From Myxococcota bacterium (GTDB taxonomy: Bacteria > Myxococcota > XYA12-FULL-58-9 > JABJBS01): a stretch of 64,000 bases of DNA. The DNA is taken from contig JAYZAY010000021.1 in NCBI GenBank assembly GCA_036339465.1, positions 1 through 64,000 on the forward strand, in the 5' to 3' direction. The stretch's first letter is position 1, and every line of letters starts with the position of its first letter. The notes under the pieces are model-generated. The model worked only from the letters and a program-made list of their open reading frames with translations, was not told where the DNA came from and did not search any database. The translations under genes were made by a program, and so were the position numbers. Shown here piece after piece: positions 1,015 through 36,350 of this stretch.

Positions 1015-1034
1015 GTGAGGGGATTTGCACAATG

Positions 1035-1050
1035 CGAGAACCCTTAAAGA
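1035..1050 (-). promoter_or_regulatory. Single iteron-like site (inverted)
   Basis: Reverse complement TCTTTAAGGGTTCTCG matches the origin iteron TCTTTAATGGTTCTCG at 15/16. Confidence 0.65.
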
Positions 1051-1085
1051 ACAAGAGACTCTTAACCCATTCAAAGGACCTTCCC

Positions 1086-1283
1086 ATGCAATTCTTAGCC
1101 GCGACCCTCTTTGCCCTAGCTCTCACCTTCGGCTTTTCTCATTCAGCCCTAGCGAACACCAGCGCTAAGGGCGAACCCACAGAAAAGACTTGCGACGACA
1201 AGTGCAAAGACGACAAAGACAAAGACGCCTGCAAGAAAAAGTGCGAAGAAAACAAGAAAAAGGATAAACCCGAAGGTCAATAA
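1086..1283 (+). CDS. Small secreted, highly charged Cys-hairpin protein (CX3C-X8-CX3C)
   Basis: AAAGGA RBS before ATG 1086, signal peptide ending ALA, mature part K/D/E-rich with four Cys. Confidence 0.75.
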   Translation: MQFLAATLFALALTFGFSHSALANTSAKGEPTEKTCDDKCKDDKDKDACKKKCEENKKKDKPEGQ

Positions 1284-1321
1284 GGATTTTCACCCACCAT
1301 TGAGGCTTTGAATTGGAGAAA

Positions 1322-1421
1322 AGTAGAGCACCCTTATTGATCAATAAGGGTGCTCTACTGATCAATAAGAGTTCTCTATTGATCAATAAGAGTTCTCTAT
1401 TGATCAATAAGGGTTCTCAAG
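1322..1421. repeat. Perfect 38-bp palindrome plus four 21-bp direct repeats (distal iteron-like cluster)
   Basis: AGTAGAGCACCCTTATTGA|TCAATAAGGGTGCTCTACT at 1322-1359. Units TGATCAATAAGRGTKCTC start at 1338, 1359, 1380 and 1401. Confidence 0.95.
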
Positions 1422-3388: not shown

Positions 3389-4513
3389 ATGTTTCAAACA
3401 ATACCATATTCCGTTTTCAGGTTGGCCATATGCACAATGATGGTCTGCTCGCTGTCTTGTCGTGGGGAACATACACCAACCGACATGAGTGAAAGCACGT
3501 CTGAGAATGTCGCCGTGCCCTCGCCCCCCCCCGAATCTAGGGAAATCACCACCTCAAACAAATGCAACACGCAGTTTAGGGCGAGCCGGGAATTGGCGAT
3601 TTACAACAACTCCACTGAATATGGACCAATCGTCAGAGCGGCTTTAATTCAAGAAAGAGAAAAATACTTCGATGCCATCTTCGTAGACAGCTACCTTGCC
3701 CTAGGTGGACCGAAACAACCCGGAACCTATCAACTAACCCCTGAATCTTGCGAGCATGGACTCTGCATTGCCACATTCACCGACTGCTCAGACATCAATA
3801 ACTTTCCCAATTCTTGTGCCAATTTGTTTCTCGCGTCTGGGGGCTCCATCACCATCCATGAAATAACGTCGCAACAAGATACAATATTTTCCGCAACCCT
3901 CAATAAGATAACCTCGACTGCACGAAAAGGCTCTAGTACTTGGTGCATTGAAGAACTAGGCTTTGAAATCGAACTTAAACTTCCCACCCAAACAACCGTA
4001 GAAGTTGGAATAAATCTCGGTGAAAAACTTACCACAGACTATACCCTAACTAACTGTAATGGTGATGAAATAACCCTTCAATCTCTAAAAGGAAAAACGA
4101 AAGCAATTTGGCTTTTAGCTATCACGGAGTGGTGTCCTAATTGTCCCAGTTCCGTAGAAAAAATGTATCAATACCTAGAAACCGCAGATGACGATGTGGA
4201 AGCTTTTGTCATACTGGGAGAAAGCCAGCAGCGCGACGTTCCAGCAACTCGAGAAAGCTGCAAACGCTACCAAGAAAAGATGCAAAGTCTCAATATAGAC
4301 CTGGATCTAGATAGGGTTCTTTTGGATGGAAATTTTGTCGACCTCTACAAGCATTTAAATCCATATTTCTATCAGGCAAGTAACGGGAGACTTTCGTGGG
4401 CTGTACCATGGCATGGTATCCTCGACGGATTAGAACTGGAATATATCTATGCCCTAACCGCCCCCGGCACCAACCAAACTCCCGAGCAGAGCTTAGAGCA
4501 AACCCGCAAATAG
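3389..4513 (+). CDS. Lipoprotein with C-terminal thioredoxin-like (redoxin) domain
   Basis: Signal ending SLSC; 'DYTLTNCNGDEITLQSLKGK...EWCPNC' is a TlpA/AhpC-like CxxC context. Confidence 0.7.
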   Translation: MFQTIPYSVFRLAICTMMVCSLSCRGEHTPTDMSESTSENVAVPSPPPESREITTSNKCNTQFRASRELAIYNNSTEYGPIVRAALIQEREKYFDAIFVDSYLALGGPKQPGTYQLTPESCEHGLCIATFTDCSDINNFPNSCANLFLASGGSITIHEITSQQDTIFSATLNKITSTARKGSSTWCIEELGFEIELKLPTQTTVEVGINLGEKLTTDYTLTNCNGDEITLQSLKGKTKAIWLLAITEWCPNCPSSVEKMYQYLETADDDVEAFVILGESQQRDVPATRESCKRYQEKMQSLNIDLDLDRVLLDGNFVDLYKHLNPYFYQASNGRLSWAVPWHGILDGLELEYIYALTAPGTNQTPEQSLEQTRK

Positions 4514-4514
4514 G

Positions 4515-5921
4515 CTAACCAATACCCAGCTTCTTCGCTCGACTGATCAAGGTGGTTCGCGGAATCGCGAGAGCCCTCGCCGCCCGGGTCCAATTTCCTC
4601 CACTAACTCGAAGCGCACGTCGAATCGATTCTGATTCAGGGCTTTGAATACCCCAAGCTTCGTTCATTCGTTGCACCAAGCGAAAATTAAAGGTAAAGGC
4701 ATCCAAATCTAGCTTTTTCACATCTTGATTCAACACCAGTGCCCGCTGAACGATGTTCTCTAGCTCACGTACATTTCCCGGCCACTCATAGTGAATGAGT
4801 GCATCTGCCGAGGCCTCTGTCAACGTTGGAGACTCCTTGCCTTTCGGTGAATATTTCCGGATAAAGAAGTTTGCCAATTCGAGAATGTCGCCAGATCGTT
4901 TCCTGAGGGGCGGAATTTCCAGATCAACAACGTTCAATCGAAAATATAGATCTTCTCGAAAATCGCCACTCGCCACTCGCGCTTCCAGGTCTCTATGGGT
5001 CGCTGCAAGCACTCGAACATTCAATGGAATGGACTGGTGCCCTCCCAATCTCTCAATCGTCTTTTCCTGCAAAACCCGCAAAAGAGCAACTTGAACCCCT
5101 TGGCTAATATCGCCAATCTCATCGAGAAAAATTGTGCCCCCATTGGCTAATTCAAAGCGCCCCCTCCGCATGGAATTGGCACCGGTAAATGCGCCCTTTT
5201 CATGCCCAAAAAGCTCACTTTGCAGCAGGTTGTCTGCGATGGCCGCACAATTTAGGGCGATAAATGGACCGTCATTCCGCGGACTAGACTCATGAAGGAA
5301 ACGAGCCAGAAGCTCTTTCCCAGTGCCTGTCTCACCCCGAATCAAAATCGAAGATTCGCTCTTCGCTGCCCTACGGGTTTGCTCCAATAATTCAGCTAAG
5401 CCGCCCTCTTCCCCCACCATCTCAAAAGCTCGGTGGGCCACCTCTTGATCGCGGCGCATAGCCGCTTCCCGTTCAGCCTTAAGACTCAATTCCAGGCGAT
5501 GCTCAGCCTTCTTACAGGCATGGTCTAAACGCAACCGAAGTTCTTCTGCGCGCCATGGCTTCAGAATATATTCCTCCGCCTGACCCTCATTAATCGCATT
5601 CATCAAGATGTCTGAATCGCTGTATGCAGAGAGAACCAAGCGACCTATTTCAGGCCACTTATTTGCCACCACGGCTAAGAATTCCACACCTGTCATCCCT
5701 GGCATGCGAATGTCGGTGATCACAACTGCGATGCTCAGTTCTTCCAAAAGTCGCAATCCTTCATCGGCAGAATTGGCGACAAAAACCCGAAAGAATCGAC
5801 CAAATTGTAGCTTAAACATCTCCGTATTACTGGATTCATCATCCACATACAAAACACCGGGACTACACACCTTGGCCATTGGGGTAAACTTATTTCTTGT
5901 ATTTTCAGACTCAAAAGACAT
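4515..5921 (-). CDS. Sigma-54-dependent response regulator (NtrC family: REC-AAA+-HTH)
   Basis: REC (VDDE, TDIRMP, KP), GETGTGKE, GAFTGA, FLDEI, WPGNVRELEN, C-terminal HTH. Start uncertain (5879/5921/5939; track ORF extends to 6065). Confidence 0.95.
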   Translation of the reverse strand: MSFESENTRNKFTPMAKVCSPGVLYVDDESSNTEMFKLQFGRFFRVFVANSADEGLRLLEELSIAVVITDIRMPGMTGVEFLAVVANKWPEIGRLVLSAYSDSDILMNAINEGQAEEYILKPWRAEELRLRLDHACKKAEHRLELSLKAEREAAMRRDQEVAHRAFEMVGEEGGLAELLEQTRRAAKSESSILIRGETGTGKELLARFLHESSPRNDGPFIALNCAAIADNLLQSELFGHEKGAFTGANSMRRGRFELANGGTIFLDEIGDISQGVQVALLRVLQEKTIERLGGHQSIPLNVRVLAATHRDLEARVASGDFREDLYFRLNVVDLEIPPLRKRSGDILELANFFIRKYSPKGKESPTLTEASADALIHYEWPGNVRELENIVQRALVLNQDVKKLDLDAFTFNFRLVQRMNEAWGIQSPESESIRRALRVSGGNWTRAARALAIPRTTLISRAKKLGIG

Positions 5922-6255
5922 CCTCGGCGTAAATACCATTCTCCGTTTTTCCGCAAGTAGACAGAAACCAACGGCACGATAATCACCGAATCCAAGCTTG
6001 AGCTTCATCACACCCAGCCCCCTAAAGGTACGTTGTGCCTTGACACTTACCGAAGACCCAGCCATTCGCCTGCCAGAGTGTCGAATTTAGAGAGATTGGC
6101 CCGTCAGTCACGCCGAATGTGGTTCAGCCCAACACAAACACAGACACGAGCGGCATTCGAACCTACTCAGGGAAAAGACAAACTCGCAGGCAGAACAGGA
6201 AGATAGAGTCTGTCTCAAGCTCGCTGAATCAGAGACTCAAGGCGATAGGATAGAA

Positions 6256-17890: not shown

Positions 17891-20800
17891 TCAAGCCTCA
17901 CCCAACACTTTAGAACTGGCGCTCAACAGAGAGCTGAAGCAACGATAATTTTCTATCACGCCCCGATCTAAATCAAAATCACTCATCTTCCATTCATGGG
18001 CTTCTAGTTCTTCACTCATTTTTCGAAGTTCATCTATTTTTTCGTGAACTCCATTTTTCTTAGGCAAACGCTTAGGGGTTTTCTCCAAGTCAGCGTAAAG
18101 GGCTAGAATTAAGGGCTCCACATATCTTTCCCGAATCACCGACAAGGTCTTTGGATTGATCCCGTGCACATAAACCAAACATTCAAAGGACCGCAATTTC
18201 CCCGAACTTACCTTCCAATAAATCGGTCGTCTCTTATACTTCTGGAGATGGTCCTTATAAAATCCATTCTCCTGAGTGAAATAGCGTTGTATCGTTCTCT
18301 GGGGAGATTCTCCTCCTCTTGGTCCCAGAATTCCTGCAATGAAACTCAAGCACGAAAGGGTGTTCGTATGGCCCCATACAAGGGAGATAAAACCTTCGAG
18401 TCTGGACGCGGCCTCATCTGGAAATTGGCCCTGGCTAAGAGGGATAATCCCATCTTGAACCGAATATCCTAAATCATTACCAGCAAGGTGATCTGGCCCA
18501 ACACCATCACCCACAATCATTAACCCTGGTCGCTTCAACGAGTAGCGCCCCATGAAACAACCAATAGCATACGAAATGAAATCTTTAATTGCATCCTGCA
18601 GAAATAGCGCCTTATACTCTTTTTTCTGAAGCCCACGACCATAGCGATAAACCGGATTCATCATGAGCGTAATTTCAGCGAGGGAGACCTCCGTGCCCAC
18701 TTCACCCTTCAAACCATAATGCTCCACTAAAGCACAATTATTGGCTATTTCTAAAACACGCAAACGTTCGGTTGTTTCCAAATTATATTGATATTGATGG
18801 TGTAATGAAGATTCGATGTCTACACCCGCGACTCCATCAACGCCCCGAGGCAACCACGGTAATGTCTCGAAATCCCAGCTTAGCTCCGAGCTGTTCCAGT
18901 CCTCTCGAGCAATGGCAACCATACTCTTCAAGCGTTCATGACCATCCACATGCAGCCTGCCAACCGGTAGCTTCGAAATCGCACCCTGCTCGAAATTAAG
19001 AGTCTGAGAAAACACCTGAATACATTCCTGAGCAACACTTGAATTTAGATACCCCAAAAGCCCAAGCAACTGTGACTCATCCTCGTGGAGAATAAACATT
19101 CCTGCCTCGCTAGGAATAGAACCTTCATCGCAAATCCGTACGGCAAAATAGCTCGAAGAAATCTTCGTCCAAGTCAGACCTTGCTTGAAATACACACGCT
19201 CGTTTTGTGGGCGAGATTTTCGACGACCAGAATCATCACGATAACTCTTAACCCGACACCCATTGTCCTCCCAATCCACAACAAAAAGGTGATTTCCGTA
19301 CCATTTGCGATAATCACCTCCCTTTAAATACGGAAACCATCGCGCCGTTTTAGGCCCTGGCTTTCTCCCTGGCCTGTAAATTTTTCGAGAATCCACCTCA
19401 AACCAATATCGGACAAACTTTGGAGTATCTCCCGTTATAAGACCCTGCTTAACTTCAAAGCCATCACTCAAATGTTTTCGCGTTTCGAAAAGAGACTGTA
19501 GACCTTTGCCCAAAAAATACCCGAGACTTTTTTGCGGAAAGCTATTGAAGAAGGATGATTTCCTCCGGAATAGCCAGCCACAATTGGGATTCACAATCGC
19601 CTCAAGGGTTCTCGGGCCTTGTTGATCCACACCTTTAAATCCAGAAAGCCGGACATAGCCTGCTTGATAATGGCTGTCGTGCTTATTTTGGAATGTAAAA
19701 CAACAAATAGGGACAGTCGCCCCGGCAAAAGCCGAATACTCCAATTGCACCACACTTGTAATTGTGGCGGAATCTAGGAGCTGATACCGCAATGCCGCAT
19801 AGGACCCAATAAACATCCAAACAAAGGGTGTCATAAAACCCAAATGGCCTTCTTCTTTTACAAGCTTTCGACAACGAACAATAAAGGCAGAAAAAAGATC
19901 TGCCTGGTAACCGGAAAAATATTCCGTTAAGTACCGACGCACGACATCCGGTTGGTGTTTGCGTCCCATAAACGGGGGGTTGGCAATGATAACATCGTGC
20001 TCACGACACAGAACCTGAGCAACCTCGAGAAGAGTCAGAAGCTTCGGGTTTGCTCGCCCAAAAAAGGCCAATTTCCCTTTCTCACATGATTCCCGTAGTT
20101 CGGGCAAACACCGCTGTAATTTCTGCGGAACTTCAATAAGAGAGCCCAATAATGGCGCGGCCTCAAACACCGCTGCAAGCTCTCCCAACAAAACACCCTC
20201 TCGCCCTAGTGGTGCAAGCATCGACTCTACCACGAGAGTCGATGTATCGGGATAGGCCCACAAACTCAGGCTAGGCTGCCGCTCAAGGATCCCTGGATCA
20301 TCGAGGTTGGCACGCAACAAAAGAACCGTCTCGGCCAATCTAATTGCACGCTCATCGATATCGAGACCGACTAAATTGTTTTCAAGTATGAGGGACGCTG
20401 CCTCGATCAAATCATAGCCTGCTTTTAAGTAAGCCTCCCTCATCACCTCATAAGCATCCAACAACAAATGGCCTGTGCCGGCAGCGGGGTCCAAAATTGT
20501 CATTTCGGTAAGGTCAAGCTGTCCACACCCAAAGGTATCTGAAGGTGACGGTAAAAGATAATTAAGCCTAAGGCCATCTCTACTAGACGCGACTCTCGTT
20601 TTGAGATATCTCCCCAGGCTATTGTGCACCAGGTATCTCGAGACCCACTTGGGAGTAAAAAGTTGGGTAACCACAGCCAATTCACGCGCACTCGAAACCC
20701 TGCCCGAGACTTGTTTTTTGTCATAATCAACAAAGCCTTGAAAGCACCAACCCAAAATCTCACAATTTCTCCAGAGTTCCTCCGGAAGACCAAAACAAAA

Positions 20801-21160
20801 GTGGTTAGCCACCTCTAAATTCATCAGACTTTCGACCGTGGACTCTGACTCAAGCTCCTCTAAATGCCGAAACAACGCCGGAAAAACCTGGGAAACCCAA
20901 CGAAGAGATTTGCGCAAAGAACTCAAGCACGATTTTGGTGACTCCAAACAAGCATTTTGAAGTCCGGCAATTCTGGCGGGCAATAAGGCATTCACTTCCA
21001 TGAACCGAAGCACACATAGAAAGAGAAAACAATCACATGATAGTTCTCTCCAAAAGCACATTTCCTGGGACCGGCTGAACTGGTTTCCTATAGAGAGACC
21101 CGAGCACGAAAGTAGTTCTCTCCCCTTCTTACTAAAAAGAATAATGCGCGCATGCTCCAT
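17891..21160 (-). CDS. pglX: BREX-1 adenine DNA methyltransferase PglX homolog (copy 2)
   Basis: TQLFTPKW, ILDPAAGTGHLL, IANPPF, FMTPFVWMF, KGG..RKWYGN, YKRRPIYW, DLDRGVIENY. Start placed at ATG 21160 (MEHARIILFS), 7 bp after the upstream stop. Confidence 0.9.
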   Translation of the reverse strand: MEHARIILFSKKGRELLSCSGLSIGNQFSRSQEMCFWRELSCDCFLFLCVLRFMEVNALLPARIAGLQNACLESPKSCLSSLRKSLRWVSQVFPALFRHLEELESESTVESLMNLEVANHFCFGLPEELWRNCEILGWCFQGFVDYDKKQVSGRVSSARELAVVTQLFTPKWVSRYLVHNSLGRYLKTRVASSRDGLRLNYLLPSPSDTFGCGQLDLTEMTILDPAAGTGHLLLDAYEVMREAYLKAGYDLIEAASLILENNLVGLDIDERAIRLAETVLLLRANLDDPGILERQPSLSLWAYPDTSTLVVESMLAPLGREGVLLGELAAVFEAAPLLGSLIEVPQKLQRCLPELRESCEKGKLAFFGRANPKLLTLLEVAQVLCREHDVIIANPPFMGRKHQPDVVRRYLTEYFSGYQADLFSAFIVRCRKLVKEEGHLGFMTPFVWMFIGSYAALRYQLLDSATITSVVQLEYSAFAGATVPICCFTFQNKHDSHYQAGYVRLSGFKGVDQQGPRTLEAIVNPNCGWLFRRKSSFFNSFPQKSLGYFLGKGLQSLFETRKHLSDGFEVKQGLITGDTPKFVRYWFEVDSRKIYRPGRKPGPKTARWFPYLKGGDYRKWYGNHLFVVDWEDNGCRVKSYRDDSGRRKSRPQNERVYFKQGLTWTKISSSYFAVRICDEGSIPSEAGMFILHEDESQLLGLLGYLNSSVAQECIQVFSQTLNFEQGAISKLPVGRLHVDGHERLKSMVAIAREDWNSSELSWDFETLPWLPRGVDGVAGVDIESSLHHQYQYNLETTERLRVLEIANNCALVEHYGLKGEVGTEVSLAEITLMMNPVYRYGRGLQKKEYKALFLQDAIKDFISYAIGCFMGRYSLKRPGLMIVGDGVGPDHLAGNDLGYSVQDGIIPLSQGQFPDEAASRLEGFISLVWGHTNTLSCLSFIAGILGPRGGESPQRTIQRYFTQENGFYKDHLQKYKRRPIYWKVSSGKLRSFECLVYVHGINPKTLSVIRERYVEPLILALYADLEKTPKRLPKKNGVHEKIDELRKMSEELEAHEWKMSDFDLDRGVIENYRCFSSLLSASSKVLGEA

Positions 21161-21167
21161 CGGCAGT

Positions 21168-24100
21168 TCACCGCTTCCCCAAAACAATTTTTCGATCAGA
21201 CGCCAAGGTGCCAAAGAAATCGTAATTTTTCTTCACCCCGTCACCTAGATCCAGTTGAAATGCATCTTCGGACAAAACTTTAAGACTTTGCTCGAACTCT
21301 CGAAGTTCATTCAGGCGTCCATGGAGTTTTGTCTTTTCGGCCGGAAACTTCGGATCCGGAATCGATGAAGCCGCCTTTGCATATTCTTGTTCAAGGGTGG
21401 AGATATAAGGGATTACGTAGGATTGTCGTATCATATCCAAGGTTTCAGAATGGAATCGATGAAGGTAAATAAGGCACTCAAACGTTCTATACTTCCCGGA
21501 ACTTATTTTCCAATAAATCGGTCGTCGTTTGTATTGAATCAAGTGGTCTCGGTAATACCCGCCAGGCCGGGTTAAATAGGATTGGACCTTTTCCAAGGCA
21601 TTCTTGCCTCCTTTAAGCCCGAGACACTTAGCGACAAAATCAATATTTTCCTCCAAGGATTCCGGGGGCCACACTTCCTTGAGAAATCGCTCAAATCTCT
21701 TGGCCGCCTCATCGGGAAAAACACCCCAAGTAAGTGGGAGGACCCCATGGAGTGCTGTACCAAATTGGCCATAAAGACTGGGGTTGAAATTGTCATTACG
21801 ATGACCCGCATAAACCAACCCCGGCTGCTCCAACGAATATCGCCCGAGAGTGCAACCGATCATATAGGAGATGAGTTCCTTCATGCTTTCCGCTCTGAAA
21901 CGTTTTTCATATTCATCATCGGAAAGATTTGGAGCAAATCGATATCGCGGGTTGGTCTTCAAACTCACATCTTCGAGACCAACATCTATCTTGATTTGGT
22001 TCTCTATACCAAACAAAACCGCGACGTTCGCATTATTCTGCCGTTCCAATTCCTGGAGTTTCTCCGATTGTTTCTTAACATAGCTACGCCAAACACTAAA
22101 GCTCTCTGATAGAGATATCCGCGGTTGATTATGGTCCGCCAGGAAAGGAAGCCTCTGAAAATCCCAACTGGATTCGAAAGAAGCCCAATCCTCACGAGAA
22201 ATCCGAATACACTCGTCAACGACTTCTGAACCTACCTCTTTCGGGCATGGAAGATTTGCCAAAGTTCCCGCTTCAAAATTCAAGGTGGGTGAAATCGCTC
22301 CTAGAACGACCTGGCAGAGCTTTGAGTTAAGTAATCCCAAAAGCGGTTTCATTTTCCCATTGGAGATTGGAAAGAGAGAAATACCCGCATCTGCGAAAAT
22401 AAATCCCTCTGGGAAATAACGTGCTGAAAATTCTCCAGAACTAATTTTTGACCAACTCAAGCTGGGTTTGAAATAGTAAGACTGATTCTTTACCACATAG
22501 CTTGGTGATGTCAGATATGGGTATTTAGCTAGAACCGTTTTTTTAATTTGGTCTCCATCGCTCTCCCAATCCACAATGTATTCTTGATGCCCATACCACT
22601 TACGATAACGCCCACCCTTATTGAGTGGAAACCACCTTTGGCGGCTGTCTTTCGCGCTTTGCGCATCTTTACAATGAAAAGCGATATCGTCTATTGAAAC
22701 CTCGTGCCAATAACGCAGGAAGCGTTCATTATCGGAAGTCGCTAAGCCTTGTTTGACATCGCCAAACTGTGAGAGTCGCCCCGGATGCGAGAAAATGTGT
22801 TGTAAAACCCCCTTCGTCCAAAATGCAATGGGTTGCCCCGGGATCTGCTTCAAGTCATCGGGCTTCATCAAATAAAACCATTCGCATTTGGGGACATGGA
22901 TCGCTTCTAGGACTTTAGGGGCTTGGTTTTCGGCGCCTCGAAAATCCGACAGTTTTATAAACGCTCCGGTAAAATTCGGTATGTATCGATTCTGGAAAGT
23001 AAACGCGCAAATCGGGACGGTGGCATCAGAGAAACCGGAGTATTCCAATTGTACCAGAGTCATAAGAGTCGCTGTTTCTAAAAGATTGAGACGCAGAGGG
23101 GTATAAGAACCTATAAACATCCAAACAAAGGGAGTCATAAAACCAAGAACCCCATCACACTTAGCAAAATCTCGACTCCGAACAATAAAGGAAGAGAAGA
23201 GGTCAGTACGATAATCGTAGTAATTGGAATATAGAAAATCCTTTAATATCTTTGGTTGGTTTTTTTTCCCAAGGTATGGGGGATTAGCGATAACAACGTC
23301 GTATTTCTTTAGGAGAAGGCGCGCGACATCAACGAGCCTTAGAATGGCGCGTCTGAAGGTCGGTATTTGTTCGGTAGATTCATTGCGGCACCATTTTTCA
23401 ATCTCCACTAGTTTATTAGCCACGTTGTCCGGTATCTTAAGTAGCGAGCCAAAAATCGATGCCGAATGAAAAATGTGGCATAATTCAGTCACCGCTTCAG
23501 GAAGCGCCTTAATCTCGGTGAAACCCCGTGGACTATCAGGAATACAGTAAACCTTTGGGGAAATCCCCTTTTCCATGAAAGTCGCGTCGTCAGATCGGGC
23601 TTTCATAATGAGAGCAAAGTTTGCAACTTGTACCGCTCGTGGCTCGATATCCACGCCAAACAAATGGTTTTCAAGTATACGTTTTGGAATCGTGCTGGCC
23701 GCGTGTCCGAGGGAGAGATAAATATTCCTTAAGGTATCGTAGGCTTCGAGTAGTAGGTGTCCTGTGCCCGCTGCGGGGTCCAAATCCGTTGGCACACCGC
23801 GCTTCGTTTCCGCGCTATTGCGGGTGAGCATTGTCGTATCAATATGATACTTGAAATTATCCGTGAGGGCTGAATCCGATTCACCGTCCATCCAGCGGGT
23901 AACAATGCTATTATGACATAAGTATTGAGCAATCCATTTTGGTGTAAAAAGTTGGGTTGAAACGGCAAGTTCATGGACCTCAAAGGCCCGACCCGTGGAC
24001 CTCCGTTTCTCGGGAGCAACATAGAATTGATACAACCATCCGAGGATTTCCGTTTCAGAACAAGACTCTGCCGTTAGGGTCGAACTTAAATCGGTTAAGA

Positions 24101-24440
24101 AAGAGTGTTCCGCGGCGATTCGGTCTAAGACGCTTAGGAGATGAGAAGTGGGTTCTGGAAAAACTGAGGGTATCATCCGTTGATATTTTCGATATAGAAA
24201 TGAGAGAGAAGCGCTGGAAGACGCCAGTTTATGTGTGGATGTGACGCCCTCAGAAGAATCGAGATAGCTTTGGACTTCCATGTAGCGAAGAGCGCACAAA
24301 AAGCCAAAAACCTTATAGGCGATATCTCTGACTAATTCGCGGTCGGTTGCAGCCCCTAGGGATACCAGAACATCGGTTGTAAGTTCCTCTAAGAACTTTC
24401 GAGTGCGTAACGCAAAGTTTGTCAGTTGCTGCTTAGTCAC
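21168..24440 (-). CDS. pglX: BREX-1 adenine DNA methyltransferase PglX homolog (copy 1)
   Basis: N-terminus MTKQQLTNFA..R, EILGWLYQFY, TQLFTPKWI, LDPAAGTGHLL, IANPPY, KGG..RKWYG, YKRRPIYW, DLGDGVKKNY..F. Confidence 0.92.
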   Translation of the reverse strand: MTKQQLTNFALRTRKFLEELTTDVLVSLGAATDRELVRDIAYKVFGFLCALRYMEVQSYLDSSEGVTSTHKLASSSASLSFLYRKYQRMIPSVFPEPTSHLLSVLDRIAAEHSFLTDLSSTLTAESCSETEILGWLYQFYVAPEKRRSTGRAFEVHELAVSTQLFTPKWIAQYLCHNSIVTRWMDGESDSALTDNFKYHIDTTMLTRNSAETKRGVPTDLDPAAGTGHLLLEAYDTLRNIYLSLGHAASTIPKRILENHLFGVDIEPRAVQVANFALIMKARSDDATFMEKGISPKVYCIPDSPRGFTEIKALPEAVTELCHIFHSASIFGSLLKIPDNVANKLVEIEKWCRNESTEQIPTFRRAILRLVDVARLLLKKYDVVIANPPYLGKKNQPKILKDFLYSNYYDYRTDLFSSFIVRSRDFAKCDGVLGFMTPFVWMFIGSYTPLRLNLLETATLMTLVQLEYSGFSDATVPICAFTFQNRYIPNFTGAFIKLSDFRGAENQAPKVLEAIHVPKCEWFYLMKPDDLKQIPGQPIAFWTKGVLQHIFSHPGRLSQFGDVKQGLATSDNERFLRYWHEVSIDDIAFHCKDAQSAKDSRQRWFPLNKGGRYRKWYGHQEYIVDWESDGDQIKKTVLAKYPYLTSPSYVVKNQSYYFKPSLSWSKISSGEFSARYFPEGFIFADAGISLFPISNGKMKPLLGLLNSKLCQVVLGAISPTLNFEAGTLANLPCPKEVGSEVVDECIRISREDWASFESSWDFQRLPFLADHNQPRISLSESFSVWRSYVKKQSEKLQELERQNNANVAVLFGIENQIKIDVGLEDVSLKTNPRYRFAPNLSDDEYEKRFRAESMKELISYMIGCTLGRYSLEQPGLVYAGHRNDNFNPSLYGQFGTALHGVLPLTWGVFPDEAAKRFERFLKEVWPPESLEENIDFVAKCLGLKGGKNALEKVQSYLTRPGGYYRDHLIQYKRRPIYWKISSGKYRTFECLIYLHRFHSETLDMIRQSYVIPYISTLEQEYAKAASSIPDPKFPAEKTKLHGRLNELREFEQSLKVLSEDAFQLDLGDGVKKNYDFFGTLASDRKIVLGKR

Positions 24441-24498
24441 AAATTACTCGACCAGTGTGATATTTTTTGTTCGGGCGGCGCGGTGATAACCTCGCGAT

Positions 24499-26097
24499 TT
24501 AGGATTGAAGGGTGATTTCGCCCGCGAGGTATTTTTCTTTGAACAACTCCTCGCCCATGGCGGCGACCCTCTTCAACAACGCCTCTTCCAAAAAGGCCGA
24601 AACAAATGCTTTGTTGGGTCGCCCTGCCCTTCCGAGGGAGTGTTTGGCCTGCTCCTTGGCTTCCGCTTCTAGGTTTTTATAATCTCGGTGGGTCAACTCG
24701 TCTTCCGCCTTGGAGATCATCGTGGTCCTATATTCCTGCCATAAGGTCTCAAGGTCTAGAAGTTCGGTCTCTTGTTTTTTCGGATGTCGGGACCGGTTGA
24801 CGGCACTTCGTGCCCCATTTTCAAATCCCTTAAGATAAAAGAAACTCTGTATCTCATCTTCGGATTTGAATTTCCTCGCCTGTTCAATTGCATGGTTCAG
24901 CATTTCAAGGGCACTGGGTTCACCGTGTTTGTCAATCCATGCCAAGGCGAGGTCGTGTTCCTTTCGAGTAATCGTGATTCCTTCTGAAGAGCCATGAAGC
25001 AGTTCATAAAACTTCTCCACCAGGGTATCGGCTGGATCGATTATTTTTGTTCTTGCTTGTTTGGGTACACGTTCGAAAATATACCGAAAATCGTCACGGG
25101 ATTTATCGACAGTAAGACTTATCTTTAAGCCGCGAGCTTGTAATCGAATCATGGAAGCCTCCACCTGATCGGTGACATAGCTTGAAGCGGTCCGACCGCC
25201 TCGGATAATTTTTTCGCTGTCCATGGCCAATTTGTATTTAGCGAATCGGCGACAGCTTTTGACTGTTTCCTTGCGTTTGCGAGCCAATTGTCGATCGAGC
25301 CAACGAAAGAGTCTTATGTCGATGGGTCTTTCCAAGCTGAGAAGAAATTTCATATCAAGTCGTTTGGTATAATTCTCCTTAATGGATTGATAAAATAATT
25401 CACCCCAGCGAATCTCATACACTTTCTTGCGACGGCGACCGCCCCGCTTCTGCGCTTGGATAACCTCATTTTCGATAAAACTGGTTTGGTCGGGTTCTTC
25501 TTCATCGTCATCGCGTTCCGTGAGATCGACAATGTAATCAATAATGGAGAAATTCGCAGGTCGGTGTGTTTTCAGGGAAGGAACCCACCATTTGTCGTGA
25601 ATGATTCTGGTTGCTGCAATGCGTTCCAACTCGCAGGTTGCGCGTTTCAGCTCTTTGCCTGCACGCCGGCTTTTAGAGTGGGGATACATATAATCATCCA
25701 CAAGTTCTCGAATCGCAAATTGAAACTTTGGTGACTGAAATGAGTTTTGTTTATTGTGCATCCAAAGAAGGGCTAGAAGAGTTCGCTCTGCATATGCCGA
25801 TGGGAGCCCGCTACCTGAACCGGCTTCTAAGCGATAGCTCTTGTCTTCGGATAAATAGATGATATTGGATTGTCGATTTGGCTTTTTACCACGACCGGGG
25901 CGATTGTCTGTAAGTCGACAAAAGGGAATTTCAACAAGGTTCATTTCATCGATAGCGCGTTCGCCATCGAGAGCGTTGAAAGGCAGGTTAAGTTGATTTT
26001 TGGAATCGTAATCAATGATGGGTTCGAGATCTTGGAGTTCGCCGTCTTGGTCTTCGGGATTGCCACTGGGTTCTCGGTTGGCGAATTTTTTTTTGAT
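24499..26097 (-). CDS. Plasmid/chromid replication initiator protein (replication initiator protein A-like)
   Basis: DEMNLVEIPF, GLPS, FSIID, W...F.QSI...Y.K.LD, P...RLFRWLD pattern; adjacent to iterons and parA. First ATG is 25944, but the frame stays open to 26154 and AAGGAGG lies 6 nt before ATC 26097. Confidence 0.82.
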   Translation of the reverse strand: MKKKFANREPSGNPEDQDGELQDLEPIIDYDSKNQLNLPFNALDGERAIDEMNLVEIPFCRLTDNRPGRGKKPNRQSNIIYLSEDKSYRLEAGSGSGLPSAYAERTLLALLWMHNKQNSFQSPKFQFAIRELVDDYMYPHSKSRRAGKELKRATCELERIAATRIIHDKWWVPSLKTHRPANFSIIDYIVDLTERDDDEEEPDQTSFIENEVIQAQKRGGRRRKKVYEIRWGELFYQSIKENYTKRLDMKFLLSLERPIDIRLFRWLDRQLARKRKETVKSCRRFAKYKLAMDSEKIIRGGRTASSYVTDQVEASMIRLQARGLKISLTVDKSRDDFRYIFERVPKQARTKIIDPADTLVEKFYELLHGSSEGITITRKEHDLALAWIDKHGEPSALEMLNHAIEQARKFKSEDEIQSFFYLKGFENGARSAVNRSRHPKKQETELLDLETLWQEYRTTMISKAEDELTHRDYKNLEAEAKEQAKHSLGRAGRPNKAFVSAFLEEALLKRVAAMGEELFKEKYLAGEITLQS

Positions 26098-26139
26098 GAC
26101 TCCCCTCCTTGTGGTCGTGCCCGTTCGAAGAATGATCCT

Positions 26140-26640
26140 CTTCTTTATTCTTATTTATATATTTAAGAGCTAAAAAGAGAACTAAAATCAAATATTTAGA
26201 AAGGAATTTTGCTTTAATGGTTCTCGCTATTTCCTTTAATGGTTCTCGCCTTTTGTTATAAGAGTTCTTGCTTTTCTTTAATGGTTCTCGAGTTTTCTTT
26301 AACGGTTCTCAAGTGCGCAGGAGGTGGACGGTACTTTGGTCGGTTTCTCTAAGTCATTGAGAATACAGGTGTTGTGTTTCGTTGGACGGGTGTCAAGAGA
26401 AGTTTTAGTCATTAATGGTTCTCGCTTTTGCTTTAAGCATTCTCGAAGTTTCTTTAATGGTTCTCGAAGTTTCTTTAATGGTTCTCGGATTTTCGGTGGG
26501 GAGTTGTTCGCGTCGGACTCTCCGAATGGTTGGGGTAAGTCATGGATATAGCTTTAGAAAACACAGGGTTTTAGAAGGAACCGGTGGGTGTAATGGGCCG
26601 GTCCGCATGGCTTGGGTGTTTTCCTTGAGAACCCTTATAG
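26140..26640. other. Putative iteron-type replication origin
   Basis: AT-rich tract 26140-26210; five iterons 26207-26312 (20-22 bp spacing); four iterons 26405-26488 (21 bp spacing), consensus CTTTAATGGTTCTCG; IHF-like TAAGTCATTGA at 26350 between clusters; inverted copy 26624-26638. Confidence 0.85.
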
Positions 26641-26689
26641 AAAAAGGATCTCTAGGCGATCGTTCTCGGAGGCTAGCGATGGATGGGAG

Positions 26690-27040
26690 TTACCGGGTGG
26701 GTTCGAGACGAAGTGCGTGTTCCTTGAATTCCTCTTCGTCGAGACTCTTAAGGGCGTGGATCGCGAGTCGGAAGAGATCGTTGTTTGATAGGCGTAGCCT
26801 TAGATCGAAGGTTGTATCAATAATCTCTTCAAAGAGTACCTGCTCTTTGTGTGGCAGGGCTATATTGTGTCGGGTTTTTGGGCCCTTGGATGGACGTCCT
26901 GGCTTTTTCGGTGTGGTCGATGTGGGTTGTTCCACTACTTGAAGAGCTTTAGAGGCGGATTCTAGCGGGGTGTCTGGGGATTGAATCCTTTGACTGGGTG
27001 TTTTTACTTGGAGGTCTTTTAGGTTAAGTTTACGCGACAT
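26690..27040 (-). CDS. Small ParA partner, probable type Ib centromere-binding ribbon-helix-helix protein
   Basis: Overlaps parA 3' end by 11 bp; disordered N-terminal tail then beta-helix-helix pattern (RHNIAL...SNNDLFRLAI). Confidence 0.65.
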   Translation of the reverse strand: MSRKLNLKDLQVKTPSQRIQSPDTPLESASKALQVVEQPTSTTPKKPGRPSKGPKTRHNIALPHKEQVLFEEIIDTTFDLRLRLSNNDLFRLAIHALKSLDEEEFKEHALRLEPTR

Positions 27041-27851
27041 GTTTCACCTCGTTGGTTTCTTGTTCGTGTATGAATAGTGCGGTTATTTCTTCGGCTGCGT
27101 CCCGATAGGCTGCGCACACTGGCCGGGATGGTTCAATATCGAAAAGGGTCGCCCCCAAAAGGGCCGATTGGTTGATGCGTTCGTCTCTACCTATTCTTGC
27201 ATCTAGTAAAGTGAGCCCCATGCCTAGGATGGCTTCTTTGATAGCAGCATTGGTTTTTTTGGTTCGCCCGTCATATTTGGTTTGTAAGCCAACGATGGCG
27301 GTGGGGGCTTCGGTAAATTCGTTAAGTTCCTGAATGGTGCCGTAGAGATCCTGCCATCCTTGAAGAGCCCCATTTTCCGCCGGCATTGGAGCGATGACGA
27401 GATCACTCGCATAGATTGCGGCTTCGGTATAGGCGCCAATATGCGGTGGGGTATCGATCACGACAAAGTCCCAATGCTCTTGGGCTTTGCGGATTGCGCC
27501 GTCTAGGAAATAAAGGCGTTGTCCTTGGAGGTAGAGCTCGCGTTCTTTGCGCGCCATCCCGATATGTCCGGGAGCGACTTGTAGATTGTTACGGTTGGTT
27601 GGTTGCACAATATCTGGAAGTGAAAATTGTGCTTTGGGCGTTAAGACCTCGGCAATGGAAGCCAGTTTTGCTTGTTCTTCGCTGACTCCCAAAATGGAGG
27701 TTGCGTTGCCCTGGGGATCGAGATCGATCAACAGGGTTTGGTGTCCGGTTTCTGCAAGGGCCGCGGCTAGGTGGCAGGCGGTGGCTGTCTTCCCTACTCC
27801 GCCTTTTATTTGAGAGATACAAATGGTTTTTGGTTTCATTGTTTCCTCCAC
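27030..27851 (-). CDS. parA: ParA family partition ATPase
   Basis: Deviant Walker A KGGVGKT, LLIDLDPQGN, Walker B FVVIDTPP; no N-terminal HTH. Start GTG 27851 or ATG 27839. Confidence 0.95.
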   Translation of the reverse strand: MEETMKPKTICISQIKGGVGKTATACHLAAALAETGHQTLLIDLDPQGNATSILGVSEEQAKLASIAEVLTPKAQFSLPDIVQPTNRNNLQVAPGHIGMARKERELYLQGQRLYFLDGAIRKAQEHWDFVVIDTPPHIGAYTEAAIYASDLVIAPMPAENGALQGWQDLYGTIQELNEFTEAPTAIVGLQTKYDGRTKKTNAAIKEAILGMGLTLLDARIGRDERINQSALLGATLFDIEPSRPVCAAYRDAAEEITALFIHEQETNEVKHVA

Positions 27852-27868
27852 ACAGGGAAAATGTGTGT

Positions 27869-27898
27869 ATTGCGCATAACCCCAAAGTTAAGTTGGAT
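27869..27898 (+). other. Xer (dif/cer)-like site
   Basis: ATTGCGCATAA-CCCCAAAG-TTAAGTTGGAT; 9/11 and 8/11 identity to the E. coli dif arms with an 8-bp spacer. Confidence 0.35.
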
Positions 27899-27936
27899 AC
27901 ATATTTAACAGGCAACACGGAAGATGCAAAGTTTCT

Positions 27937-28323
27937 GCTAGAAATGCAGAAAATGGTGAGTAGGCGTAATCTGTTGGCTCTGTTGTATCTGGGCTTTATG
28001 GTGAAGCTGTTTGGTATGTGGAGAGCAGGGAAAATGGTGAATGCGGTAGATGTGTTAGAGGTGTCGGTTATGGGTAATGCGGTGAATCTGGGTTATAGGG
28101 TGAATATGCAGTAATCCCTAAACACAGAGGCAGTGTAGGAGATGTAATGAATGTAGCGGCTGTGGCCTCTGCTGGATGTGTTGGATAAGTAGGACGCGTT
28201 GGGTGTGTATGAGAAGTGGAAGAAGCAGGATAGGGTAGATGAGTTGGCTCTGTTGGATGTGTAAGACTTGGGTGGTATGTTGAAACTGTTTTCTGTGTCA
28301 GGTACGGGCGATGCGTGAGCCGC
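27937..28323. repeat. Degenerate in-phase 9-bp repeat array (about 43 units) upstream of parA
   Basis: Units such as GTTGGATGT, GTTGGCTCT, GGTGAATGC, GTAGGAGAT hold one phase; nearly all start with G. Confidence 0.75.
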
Positions 28324-28984
28324 AGGAGAAACCTAGTTGACAGGCTCAATGTGGGATATGGTTGAAGCACTATAAATGCAATAGGTGTGAGTGATGTTTA
28401 ATCTGTGGACTGCGCGACGCATGCAGGCTCTGCGAGCCCAGGGTAAAACGCGCGGACTGTGATACCTGTTGAGTCTGTGGAATATGTGGTTTGCGGGTTG
28501 TCTGTTTAATGCGCACGAAATGTTTGTTCTGTTCCAGGGCTTGGTGTGACCGCTTTTGAGTGCGTCTAGTTCCGAATGGCGCACGCGCCATTGACCAAGG
28601 CCCTGGTGCATATTACGGGGCCAAATGAAGGGCCTGAGAAGCAAACCGTCCCCATTGGTCGCAGTTGTTTGATCGACTCATTGGATTGTGGCTGCCAAGC
28701 CGCGAGATTTGGGTTATTTCGTGGTTTCACCCGCCAAAACCAACGATGCTCACCTAAGGGCCAAGGGATACAATGTCTGATAATGAACTTAATGAAAAAG
28801 GTACTTGTTTTGATTTGGCCAGACGCCGGCCGTGAGGATTGCCCTGACTGGGGCCCATCAAGAATCCTCCAAGTTGTTTGCGCTCTCTGAACTTTCTAAA
28901 ATACGACCCATCCTTACGAATGAAAATCCCGTTTACGATGAATGCTTCGAGGGCGGCTGAAATCCCAAACCAACCACGGCTGTC

Positions 28985-29635
28985 TCATTTCTGAGAACTG
29001 CGCGGGACATCCCGGAATTGGCGAATGGATTTATCTCTTCCAGAGCCCCTGCGGTAACGCTCGTAATGTTGAGGCTTTTTTGTGTAGTAACTCTGATGGT
29101 AGGGCTCCGCAGGGTAGAAGTGGCCGGCTTTTAGGATTTCGACCACCACCGGCTTTTGAAAGCGCCTGGAATCGTTGAGTTGCTTTTTAGAGGAGATGGC
29201 GTCTGTGCGTTGCACTTCGGTGACCCAGAAGATACCAGGTCGGTATTGGGGGCCCCTGTCCACAAATTGACCCTTCCCGTCGGTTGGATCTATGTTTTTC
29301 CAGAAAATTTCGAGAATCTCTTTGTATTTTACGATATTTGAATCGAACACCACCCTGATCGCTTCCGTATGTCCGGTTTTGCCCATTGCCACCGCTCTAT
29401 AGTTGGGGTTCTTTTCCAAGCCACCGGTATATCCGACCGTCGTCTTAATGACGCCTTTAACTTGATCGAAGGTCGATTGCATGCACCAGAAACAGCCCCC
29501 CGCAAGGATCGCAGTTTCTTGCTTAGGGAAAGCCTCGGATGTCGCGGGCGCTAGGGAGAATACCCATATAAATGTTGCCGGCATTCTTAAGAAGAGGAGC
29601 TTCAACGTATTCTTCATGGTTAATGATGTTTCCAA
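28985..29635 (-). CDS. msrA: Peptide methionine sulfoxide reductase MsrA, exported
   Basis: AGGCFWC, GYTGG, GHTEA, DRGPQYR, FYPAEPYHQ; signal peptide. Confidence 0.97.
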   Translation of the reverse strand: METSLTMKNTLKLLFLRMPATFIWVFSLAPATSEAFPKQETAILAGGCFWCMQSTFDQVKGVIKTTVGYTGGLEKNPNYRAVAMGKTGHTEAIRVVFDSNIVKYKEILEIFWKNIDPTDGKGQFVDRGPQYRPGIFWVTEVQRTDAISSKKQLNDSRRFQKPVVVEILKAGHFYPAEPYHQSYYTKKPQHYERYRRGSGRDKSIRQFRDVPRSSQK

Positions 29636-30084
29636 TGAATGTTGTTAATTCGGGGCCTATCGCAAGACAGAGCCTATGGTGATTTAGCCAAATGGCAAGC
29701 TCAAGACACGATTTGTGAAGGAGGAGGTGATTGAGTAATGAAGAGAAACCCTATTCATACTCAGGTGCGACGATGAATAGGGCGTGGATGCCCGTGAACT
29801 ACGACCTCTTGTTGACGAGGCTTATAATTGGACCCGCCCCTGGTTTTGGGTTGGTACCTCCAACCACCGAGAAGACTCTGAATCCTATGAAGTTCAAAAA
29901 AGTATTGCCCACTGGAAGCCAATCTTAAGCCCAGAACAATTCGCAAATCCTAAGCGCTAACCCCACTGAGCGTGGATTGTGCGGTAGGTCTTGGCAGTAA
30001 AAGTCGCTGGCGCATTATCACGCTTCCATGGAGCGACTCATTCTCCAGTTGTATCTGCCTCCACTGGATTGTTTGTGATTTCTG

Positions 30085-30291
30085 TGTCTTTCCTGTCGTT
30101 TGTCTTTCCTGTCGTTTGTCTTTCCTGTCGTTTGTCTTTCCTGTCGTTTGTCTTTCCTGTCGTTTGTCTTTCCTGTCGTTTGTGTTTTCTTTGTTTTCTT
30201 TGTTTTCTTTGTTTTCTTTGTTTTCTATGTTTTCTATGTTTTCTATGTTTTCTATGTTTTCTATGTTTTCTGTGTTGGATGTGGTTTATGT
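30085..30291. repeat. Compound tandem repeat: six 16-bp units followed by 9-bp units
   Basis: (TGTCTTTCCTGTCGTT)x6 at 30085-30180; GTTTTCTTT x4, GTTTTCTAT x5, GTTTTCTGT, GTTGGATGT, GGTTTATGT at 30184-30291. Confidence 0.97.
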
Positions 30292-30837
30292 CGCCATTCG
30301 GAAACTCTATTTTCGGCCCAGAATGAAATATTTACCCCATTTGCGATTTAGACTTTCCGGAATCCATGCCCACCTTTCCAATGCCTAAGAGCACCCCCCT
30401 CGTTTGTCTTATTGCATTCCTTCTTTGTTTACTCGTTCCCATTTAAAGCGGATTCCGTGCATCTAACTGGCTCGATTTTGTTTTTGTCTGGGATAAGCGT
30501 TATGTTTTGAGAGAGTGTGGTCCTAGAATTTTTCTTTGGACGGGCATTTCGTTTTGAGGTGGATGACTGGTTTCTCGGGGTGAAGGAATCTTTTGTTTTA
30601 GCGACGTAGTGGCGTGTCAAGGCGGGCTTTCAGGTGGGGCTGCTTGTAACGGGTTTAATAAGGTCGACTTGCATTATGCCAGGCAAGGTTGTTCTTTAAG
30701 TAAGCGATTGAAAATTTGACTTGAAGCCAATGCTGGCGAAGCAGGAACTTGGTACGGACATGACGTGTGGATTTAAATTTTAGGGGTGCTATCTCAAAAG
30801 CAGACCGGACAACTTTTGGAAGTGAGTTAATGAAACC

Positions 30838-32694: not shown

Positions 32695-32765
32695 GATTGT
32701 ATTTTCTGTTTGTTATGTGAACATTTATTCTCGTAACTAGAAGTTCAAGCCCCCAAAGACGACCC

Positions 32766-36026: not shown

Positions 36027-36350
36027 TATTCTTCGCGCGCAGGAAACGCTGATTTAGGAATAAAGCCGACAAAACTGGCACACCCGAATTTTCCTCAATT
36101 ACCACACCTGGCCCCATCTGACACCCAGCCCCTATAAATGAGTTTGCCCCGACCTTGATTGTCTTTAAGTAAAGTATACGCATTTCTCCCTTTTTGCGAA
36201 CCACATGGGGAGAAAGATAAACCTCATTGCCAAAAAACACATTGTCGCCAATATCGATATGACCGCGGTCGGTGACCTTTACCAAGGTCGCCCAAAAAAC
36301 CTTATCTCCTACTTGGCTGCCCCACGCCCTCAACCAAGAGGAGTATAGAT
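35989..36350 (-). pseudogene. Left-handed beta-helix acyltransferase, 5' truncated
   Basis: LRAWGSQVG, IGDNVFFG, VGANSFIGAGC hexapeptide pattern; 5' end abuts the asnB remnant. Confidence 0.7.

Follow-up and report, generated by a model that had tools for sequence, protein, structure and literature searches.

In the plasmids P1 and F, copy number is lowered via titration and handcuffing by additional arrays (incA and incC, respectively) whose iterons resemble those of the origin but are located beyond its minimal form; both arrays adjoin the rep gene (∼1–2 kb) and match the origin iterons closely. Inverted-repeat Rep operators, of which the F repE operator and the pSC101 IR are examples, overlap the rep promoter, and the alpha and beta origins of R6K provide a comparison for a second origin that is activated at a distance. 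On chromosome 2 (Chr2) of Vibrio cholerae, ori2 contains 12-mer iterons with GATC as well as inhibitory 39-mers. According to a review, the Chr2 initiator RctB additionally binds five iterons and a 39-mer-like site ∼40 kb from ori2, within a 74-kb region; these remote sites titrate RctB and inhibit initiation, and a role like that of E. coli datA has been proposed for them (PMC6090056). Control of copy number by remote initiator-binding loci is thus an established mechanism (PMC6090056).

The window considered here, 64,000 nt of DNA from a member of the Myxococcota, comprises the first 64 kb of a contig of 78,879 bp (C21) within a draft genome of 102 contigs (4.17 Mb, 92.8 % complete). Very few plasmids are known from this phylum. 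The plasmid pMF1 has been described as the sole autonomously replicating one found in myxobacteria (PMC3235114). On the reading that we favour, and which we give about an even chance of being right, the Rep protein encoded at 24499–25944 would have an auxiliary place of binding, far from the origin, at positions 1034–1421 of the window, which would act by titration or handcuffing. This locus resembles P1 incA and F incC in being built of direct repeats with a period of about two helical turns, and differs from them in that the distal array is 24.8 kb away and four of its five units have diverged. The resemblance to V. cholerae Chr2 extends to an initiator of the same predicted fold class, for which RctB domains 2–3 are the best structural match, to GATC within one class of sites and, on the favoured reading, to several classes of initiator site and to sites tens of kb from the origin on a large DNA. 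There are nevertheless clear differences, as identity with RctB is ∼12 % over the aligned core and the Rep studied here (481 residues) carries a C-terminal domain that is unmatched; moreover, GATC is found in the origin iterons of V. cholerae, whereas here the origin iterons lack it and the remote units have it. The remote Vibrio sites form, according to the review, a cluster of six within 74 kb (PMC6090056), compared with a tandem array bearing a palindrome in our case. Finally, the distal locus shares with inverted-repeat Rep operators, such as that of F repE, a head-to-head arrangement of partial iterons that could accept a Rep dimer; known operators overlap the rep promoter, however, whilst the palindrome described here lies between convergent, unrelated genes. 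We rejected its assignment as a Rep operator, the inverted units being 25 kb from rep.

The Rep protein (481 aa; 24499–25944, minus strand) itself gave no Pfam match, and 10 of the 23 members of its family matched PF10134 (RPA, ‘Replication initiator protein A’). In fold searches with its predicted model (mean pLDDT 83.2), RctB domains 2–3 were the best match (Foldseek E 2.4e-6), with residues 1–296 aligning at Z 15.9 over 236 residues (rmsd 4.6). The same residues reached Z 13.5 with RepE54, 13.9 with a Rep–DUE complex (8ac8) and 12.7 with pi, and the dimeric RepE–operator structure 2z9o was also amongst the fold matches of Rep (Z 8.4), whilst the C-terminal helical domain was without a match in these searches. 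The fold matches thus describe a WH1–WH2 iteron initiator, with its core in residues 1–296 and an extra C-terminal helical domain, and, as judged from the predicted model, Rep is a genuine iteron-type initiator of the WH1–WH2 class.

Along the minus strand, the order of elements in this module is parA, a small parB-like gene, an inverted iteron, array B, array A, an A/T-rich stretch and rep. The nine origin iterons of the preliminary description were all recovered, five of 21–22 bp in array A (26207–26312, plus strand) and four of 21 bp in array B (26405–26488, plus strand). The A/T-rich stretch at 26130–26206, between the rep start and array A, is a candidate unwinding element, and the single inverted iteron (26625–26645, minus strand) sits beside the origin. 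Within 26100–26700, GATC occurs solely at 26134, 26647 and 26658, and none of these positions is inside an iteron unit. The parA gene (27030–27851, minus strand) has ParA-type Pfam and NCBIfam matches. Its parB-like neighbour (26690–27040, minus strand) has no family match; Atlas searches gave leads, and no more than leads, to small ribbon–helix–helix or partition-associated proteins (best score 0.91). Further along, at 30085–30276, are two sets of tandem repeats (16 bp × 6.4 copies and 9 bp × 10.4 copies).

The distal locus lies on the same contig as the origin, 24.8 kb off. At its left edge is an A/T-rich stretch (971–1015) with an A10 run, a T run and, at its end, the hexamer TATAAT (1009–1014); it might serve as a promoter, and a consensus scan detected no full sigma-70-type promoter at 971–1015. 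Directly 3′ of it is a single origin-type iteron, TTGTTCTTTAAGGGTTCTCGC (1034–1054, minus strand), with the full consensus; as described previously, positions 1035–1050, when reverse-complemented, match the origin consensus at 15 of 16 positions. Between this site and the tandem array there is a small ORF of 65 aa (1086–1283, plus strand), for which the ORF list gives a longer start at 1032, the start at 1086 being our own reading. Its product has a signal-peptide-like N-terminus and a tail rich in Lys, Asp and Cys. Searches of Pfam and NCBIfam returned no matches for it, nor did a search for paralogues within the genome. A metatranscriptome contig (X17) spans 1066–1262, inside the ORF, with 0 differences, which hints that the ORF is expressed, with DNA carry-over as another possible source of that contig.

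The array proper occupies 1337–1420 (plus strand) and consists of four tandem 21-bp variant iteron units of the form TTGATCAATAAG(G/A)GT(G/T)CTC..., delimited by Tandem Repeats Finder (TRF) as 1335–1418 (period 21, 4.0 copies, 92 % matches, score 140). The first of these direct units, together with one inverted unit, forms a perfect 38-bp palindrome at 1322–1359, in which two arms of 19 nt (1322–1340 and 1341–1359) are 100 % complementary with a spacer of 0 nt and TGATCA is at the centre. Every tandem unit contains a 12-bp palindrome, TA(T/C)TGATCAATA, three of the four copies being perfect and one near-perfect, at a spacing of 21 bp, and TGATCA recurs at 1338, 1359, 1380 and 1401. A C9 homopolymer run (1422–1430) adjoins the last unit. 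Both the single iteron and the array, which are 270 bp apart, are outside long genes, and the array is located between two convergent ones, the 65-aa ORF on the plus strand, which ends at 1283, and a minus-strand gene for a WD40 protein, with its end at 1732. The head-to-head palindrome, and the presence of TGATCA in each unit but not in the origin copies, had both been reported in the preliminary description and were found exactly as stated.

Two runs from other studies, X2 and X5, contain the same region. Unitigs from both cover 1265–1351, 1322–1359, 1330–1388 and 1359–1409 with 0 differences, those from X2 additionally cover 1406–1592, again with 0 differences, and the palindrome forms its own 38-nt unitig in each run. 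The unitigs traverse its centre from either flank and reproduce the region without differences, so a fold-back artefact of a single assembly, which had been named as a possible refutation, is ruled out; being based on 31-mers, they do not reach as far as the copy number of the units. The position of the palindrome also suggests a role in RNA, namely as a terminator or a 3′ stabilizing hairpin for the convergent 65-aa ORF and WD40 gene. The hairpin begins 39 nt past the stop at 1283, the RNA fold of 1270–1450 places a strong hairpin at the palindrome (z −6.97) and a terminator-like site, with a stem followed by TTTT, was called, on the minus strand only. On the plus strand, however, no T run is found 3′ of the hairpin, the two terminator-like sites that the scan yielded for the region compare with 1.5 expected in shuffled sequence, and termination leaves unexplained the three further tandem units, the iteron core and the nearby consensus iteron. 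We therefore give this possibility, as the main function of the palindrome, only a slim chance, noting that such a role may coexist with protein binding. No Rfam family reached its gathering score in 1–32000.

In order to relate the distal units to the origin, a matrix of 21 positions (22.8 bits) was derived from the nine origin iterons, which themselves score 20.9–33.1, and scanned over the 8,333,996 positions of the whole assembly. The single site at 1034–1054 scored 27.3, within the origin range, and ranked 6 of 8,333,996, with the inverted iteron at 26625–26645 ranking 8 (26.8). All of the top ten positions are on C21, and are made up of eight origin units plus these two sites; the best match off C21 scored 22.0, the weakest origin unit being at 20.9. 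The five distal units, one inverted and four direct, obtained 6.6, 6.6, 7.5, 9.2 and 14.1 with the full matrix, and 10.2, 10.2, 12.8, 12.8 and 17.7 with its 13-base core, for which the origin range is 15.2–22.0. In order along the array, the core scores of the direct units are 10.2, 12.8, 12.8 and 17.7. Only the last, at 1400–1420, thus attains the origin core range, and the other four distal units fall below every origin iteron with both the full matrix and the core. As the mutual likeness of the distal units is attributable to tandem duplication, they do not represent five independent observations.

What the tandem units do retain is the pattern TAAnnGT(T/G)CTC and a direct-repeat period of 21 bp, which is that of origin array B (array A having 21–22 bp), so the resemblance in core and period pointed out previously was borne out by both TRF and direct reading. 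The same holds for the 15-nt stretch ATAAGGGTTCTCAAG (1407–1421), which is the exact reverse complement of 26624–26638, in the single inverted iteron beside the origin; since the flanks of the two 15-mers differ, they are not the product of a recent duplication. Divergence is seen at defined positions. Both units of the palindrome carry G where all 11 strong sites carry T, the last core position is T in four of the distal units but G or A in the strong sites, and the 5′ flank TGATCAA of the distal units is unlike the T-rich flank of the origin iterons. Taken together, the matrix scores depict the distal locus as one true iteron accompanied by a diverged subclass of iteron-like units. Hence the term ‘origin-type’, applied in the preliminary description to the whole cluster, is fully valid for the single site 1034–1054 alone; the matrix scan proposed there upheld this site and the core of the last unit, and not the other four units. 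With one of five units in the origin range and an otherwise invariant T changed to G, binding of Rep at the array itself is something that we infer.

These same departures raise the possibility that the array is the site of a different dimeric DNA-binding protein, which would read the 12-bp palindromes TATTGATCAATA two helical turns apart, for instance as a centromere for the small ParB-like protein or as an operator array, with the likeness to the iteron core being secondary. The perfect 12-bp palindrome based on TGATCAA could be the true recognition element of such a protein: palindromes of this kind at a 21-bp spacing are good dimer sites, they occur at this one place in the genome, which would be expected of a centromere, four of the five units match the origin matrix poorly, and the weak Atlas leads for the ParB-like protein point to ribbon–helix–helix and partition proteins, which bind short repeated sites. 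Against this, the consensus iteron 270 bp away, the 15-mer shared with 26624–26638 and the shared 21-bp period would be left unexplained. A type Ib partition centromere would furthermore be expected next to the parA–parB operon, usually upstream of it, whereas ∼25 kb separate the cluster from parAB (25.6 kb between the array and 27030–27851), and similar palindromes, when sought upstream of parA, were absent there. The 16-bp and 9-bp arrays at 30085–30276, on the other hand, fit the layout of a paralogous module on contig C5, in which 16-bp arrays, parA, iterons and rep follow one another in that order, and these arrays are probably the better candidate for the centromere of the C21 module. 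On balance, we consider it rather unlikely that the array belongs to a different protein.

The genomic distribution of the repeats bears on their relationship to the origin. The motif TAANNGTTCTC has 32 matches in the assembly on both strands, 12 of them on C21, compared with ∼32 genome-wide and ∼0.6 on C21 expected by our own arithmetic under a uniform model. The C21 matches fall in four places: 1036, 1366–1418, 26215–26486 and 26627. More specific patterns, AATAAGRGTTCTC, TATTGATCAATA and the 18-nt unit (≤ 2 mismatches), are confined to 1326–1418 within the 4.17-Mb assembly. In public metagenome contigs, the unit pattern was found in 51 stretches, each with a single match except for five with two loose matches; four of the five are one homologous sequence with its matches 33 bp apart, and in the remaining one they are 1.7 kb apart. 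A 21-bp array was present in none of the 51 stretches, and none encoded a relative of Rep. A dispersed REP- or MITE-like repeat is therefore ruled out, and genome-wide scatter of the motif, which would have counted against the original proposal, was not what we observed; the cluster is instead specifically related to the C21 origin iterons. Two further candidates were dropped. A transposon bounded by 15-bp terminal inverted repeats (1407–1421 and 26624–26638) was discarded because the flanks are without target duplication, and an NtrC-type enhancer for the sigma-54 activator encoded at 4515–6065 was set aside, as inspection by eye revealed no −24/−12 promoter near the array. A keyword search of the open-access literature found no paper on remote iterons in Myxococcota.

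It is also conceivable that the locus has no present function and is a decaying remnant, expanded by slippage, of an origin region of the same Rep type that had undergone duplication or recombination. Consistent with this are the divergence of the units from the origin consensus, a degenerate unit at 1277–1292, which overlaps the stop codon of the 65-aa ORF and suggests that the array was once longer, the signs of rearrangement in the rep block (inverted skew at 22.9–32.7 kb) and the absence of the locus from all other public contigs scanned. In disagreement with decay, however, the perfect 38-bp palindrome and the 92 % identity of the units argue for recent formation or maintenance, the consensus iteron at 1034–1054 equals the origin's own and metagenomes from separate studies and years carry the sequence unchanged. 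A remnant with intact iterons would, moreover, bind Rep anyway. We regard a functionless leftover as unlikely.

Returning to the favoured reading of an auxiliary Rep-binding locus, Rep monomers would bind with high affinity to the consensus site and to the best unit, and with lower affinity to the variant units. The locus would thereby remove free Rep (titration), pair with the origin iterons via Rep–Rep contacts (handcuffing or looping) or do both, and either activity would be expected to damp re-initiation; the head-to-head pair of units could alternatively accept a Rep dimer. The direction of the effect, like Rep binding itself, is proposed here by analogy. The preliminary description had called the region a remote replication-control locus, and this finds backing in the kinship with iterons, a genuine Rep and a known mechanism, and is weakened by the fact that only one of the five units lies in the origin range. 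It had also raised sensitivity to methylation. TGATCA in every unit would let the state of Dam methylation tune binding, and contig C75 encodes an orphan Dam-family methylase that may act on GATC (PF02086, 229 bits; TIGR00571, 301.8 bits against a cut-off of 114.85). A Pfam search found no restriction-enzyme family amongst its neighbours, and no other 4-bp palindrome is as depleted in the genome as GATC (observed/expected 0.64). GATC in each tandem unit is thus paired with a Dam-type methylase in the same host. The presence of such a methylase, the lack of a restriction neighbour and the depletion of GATC make methylation of GATC plausible and, as far as can be judged from the sequence, sensitivity of the distal array to it plausible as well.

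If Rep does bind the locus, nature would offer a second example, beyond Vibrio, in which an RctB-like initiator has several classes of site and a control locus at a distance of tens of kb from its origin. Devices of this kind are familiar from Vibrio and the classic plasmids; what would be new is that variant iterons bearing GATC palindromes are combined with a dimer-type palindrome at 25 kb from the RctB-like origin of a member of the Myxococcota. At ∼400 bp, the locus would also be a compact test object, holding a consensus site, graded variants, a dimer-type palindrome and four GATC sites, and could let titration, handcuffing and methylation control be told apart. Were the array to prove a leftover, or the site of another protein, nothing out of the ordinary would have been found.

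Secondary clusters of iteron-like sites are not restricted to this module. The genome has five Rep paralogues (on contigs C21, C45, C86, C68 and C5), and relatives of Rep were found in 6 of the 41 genomes searched, counting this one; the MAGs from which the related public loci derive bear the labels Myxococcota, Polyangiaceae and Bdellovibrionales. A single close Rep (99 %) was found, encoded on a contig of 3 kb, the next ones being 35–37 % identical. Direct iterons of 21–23 bp are present just upstream of rep in three of the four other in-genome modules (C45, C5 and C86) and upstream of rep in five of eight public loci (L019, L021, L024, L025 and L026), and TRF found no iteron array in C68, L020, L022 or L023. 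Of the 13 modules scanned, four (L024, L026, C86 and C21) contain a cluster of secondary, inverted copies of their own iteron core. In L024 the cluster comprises three inverted 23-bp units 2.5 kb away, in L026 inverted variants at 0.1–0.3 kb that lack the GATC found in the direct units, and in C86 a 41-bp array of 2.5 copies 0.6 kb away. This frequency points to a recurring trait of the Rep family. These three modules share with ours a Rep of the same family (27–35 % identity) and a second cluster that keeps the iteron core of its module, with other flanks and the opposite orientation, and L024 and L026 also have GATC in one class of sites. They differ in that their clusters are 0.1–2.9 kb from rep and none is a perfect palindrome, and they are themselves uncharacterized MAG sequences. 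Only in C21 is the secondary cluster tens of kb from its module, within a survey that covered the flanks of public loci to 10 kb, the iteron cores of C21, C45, C5 and C86 genome-wide and that of C68 on its own contig; for the cores of C45, C5 and C86, the genome-wide scan revealed no cluster beyond 3 kb. L022, L025, L026 and C5 have short repeats with GATC in the interval from the iterons to rep. In a synteny test for a chromosomal location, two flanking proteins were found in a single relative of the same family (75 and 35 % identity), on separate contigs, making synteny uninformative; the second (35 %) has a further match of 22 % in an order-level relative.

GC skew in this genome is strong (median |skew| 0.134 for contigs > 20 kb), and the skew of C21 is negative throughout save for a block at 22,883–32,719, in which it rises in a step at the origin (26.0 kb), going from +0.05 to +0.25, and flips sharply at 32.7 kb. 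The same sign of skew is accordingly seen on both sides of the origin. Two pictures fit these values: an active origin whose rightward fork halts after ∼6.5 kb, or a rep–par block that was inserted or inverted in DNA with a skew set by another origin. None of the four other Rep paralogue modules has opposite skew signs on its two sides; those on C5, C45 and C86 are in DNA of uniform sign, and that on C68 borders the end of its contig, with the skew becoming positive there, which leans towards the inserted or inverted block without settling the matter. If the step at 26.0 kb does mark an active origin, the leftward fork would reach the distal locus, in which GATC palindromes are joined to variant iterons, after ∼25 kb, and the locus might then serve this RctB-like initiator of the Myxococcota as a switch coupled to replication. 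Passage of the fork would duplicate and hemimethylate the locus, altering its affinity for Rep or the use of monomers versus dimers on the palindrome, and the next initiation would thereby be timed or blocked. Such a switch would combine datA-type titration with crtS-type signalling in cis and would have arisen independently of Vibrio; we think it distinctly improbable.

More improbable still, and highly so, is that the distal locus works as another Rep-dependent origin, which the main iteron arrays would activate from afar. The consensus iteron does adjoin the A/T-rich stretch at 971–1015, the array itself is A/T-rich and Rep is of the pi/RepE/RctB fold class; nevertheless, no DnaA-box-like site (TTATCCACA, ≤ 1 mismatch) was found in 800–1800, or in 25900–26750. 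Skew is unreadable at the distal locus because the contig ends 1 kb to its left. The view that the whole window belongs to one Rep-controlled replicon, put forward with the initial observations, is not supported either way by these data. C21 carries no tRNA, and its ends do not overlap each other as those of a circular molecule would. Its right end overlaps contig C55 by 86 nt, and C55 in turn overlaps C40 by 38 nt; these overlaps, which could be repeats, would form a chain of ∼142 kb, and C55 and C40 share the negative skew of C21 throughout. The gene content of C21 is of an accessory type, including signalling functions, glycosyltransferases, two Eco57I-like methylases, P450 fragments and a xanthine-dehydrogenase-type cluster.

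GC skew in the window is positive across a block at 22883-32719, with the rest of the C21-C55-C40 chain (contigs joined by end overlaps, ∼142 kb) uniformly negative. Inside this block the skew steps at the origin, at 26.0 kb, and it flips sharply at 32.7 kb, within a 72-bp intergenic gap. The block is either an origin whose terminus lies close by, or else a rep-par block that was inserted or inverted. Also within these limits, a 1.2-kb non-coding gap holds two near-perfect tandem arrays at 30085-30276, one comprising 6.4 copies of the 16-bp unit TGTCTTTCCTGTCGTT and the other 10.4 copies of the 9-bp unit TGTTTTCTA. Contig C5 of the same draft genome has parallel arrays of 16-bp units at 1375-1933, upstream of its parA gene; the arrays at 30085-30276 are the likely partition centromere.

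Besides the Rep of contig C21, the genome encodes four more Rep paralogues (29-41 % identity), at C45:7648-9000, C86:8925-10313, C68:34654-36024 and C5:4374-5843. Those on C45, C86 and C5 each have upstream iterons of their own, 21-23 bp in length and unrelated. Five RctB/RepE-like modules in a single 4.2-Mb Myxococcota MAG is unusual.

Further iteron-like sequences were observed at three places in the window. At 1277-1292 a degenerate additional unit, TCAATAAGGATTTTCA, overlaps the small ORF that precedes the distal array, at its stop codon, and lies ahead of the first direct unit by 64 bp, a distance of three 21-bp periods and one extra bp; going by this unit, the distal array may once have been longer. 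Opposite the inverted single iteron at 26625-26645, positions 26647-26668 carry the half-iteron GATCGTTCTCGG and two GATC sites, and the resulting head-to-head, degenerate arrangement resembles the distal palindrome. Finally, a weak iteron-like site (score 17.5 with the origin matrix) is present at 40149-40169, upstream of a 1075-aa ORF at 40254; one match of such strength on C21 fits chance expectation.

In several relatives, the stretch that separates the iterons from the start of rep contains short GATC-bearing repeats of 9-11 bp, such as AAATGATCT. They occur in the public loci L025 (3140-3161), L026 (9670-9700) and L022 (3514-3542), as well as in the C5 module (4225-4245), and may act as methylation-sensitive unwinding elements. 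Across the genome GATC is depleted (observed/expected 0.64, the lowest among the 4-bp palindromes tested), and an orphan Dam-family methylase is encoded at C75:12727-13572. Adjoining rep, at window 17891-24440, are two neighbouring genes for proteins of ∼1100 aa each with an Eco57I-type N6-adenine methylase domain, which may be type IIG restriction-modification enzymes.

Elsewhere in the window, a cytochrome P450 at 34690-36809 is broken into two overlapping ORFs (278 and 173 aa) and is followed by a 159-aa asparagine-synthase fragment, all of which are probably pseudogenes. A DUF2505 gene contains a near-perfect 48-bp tandem repeat of 3.1 copies (51122-51268).
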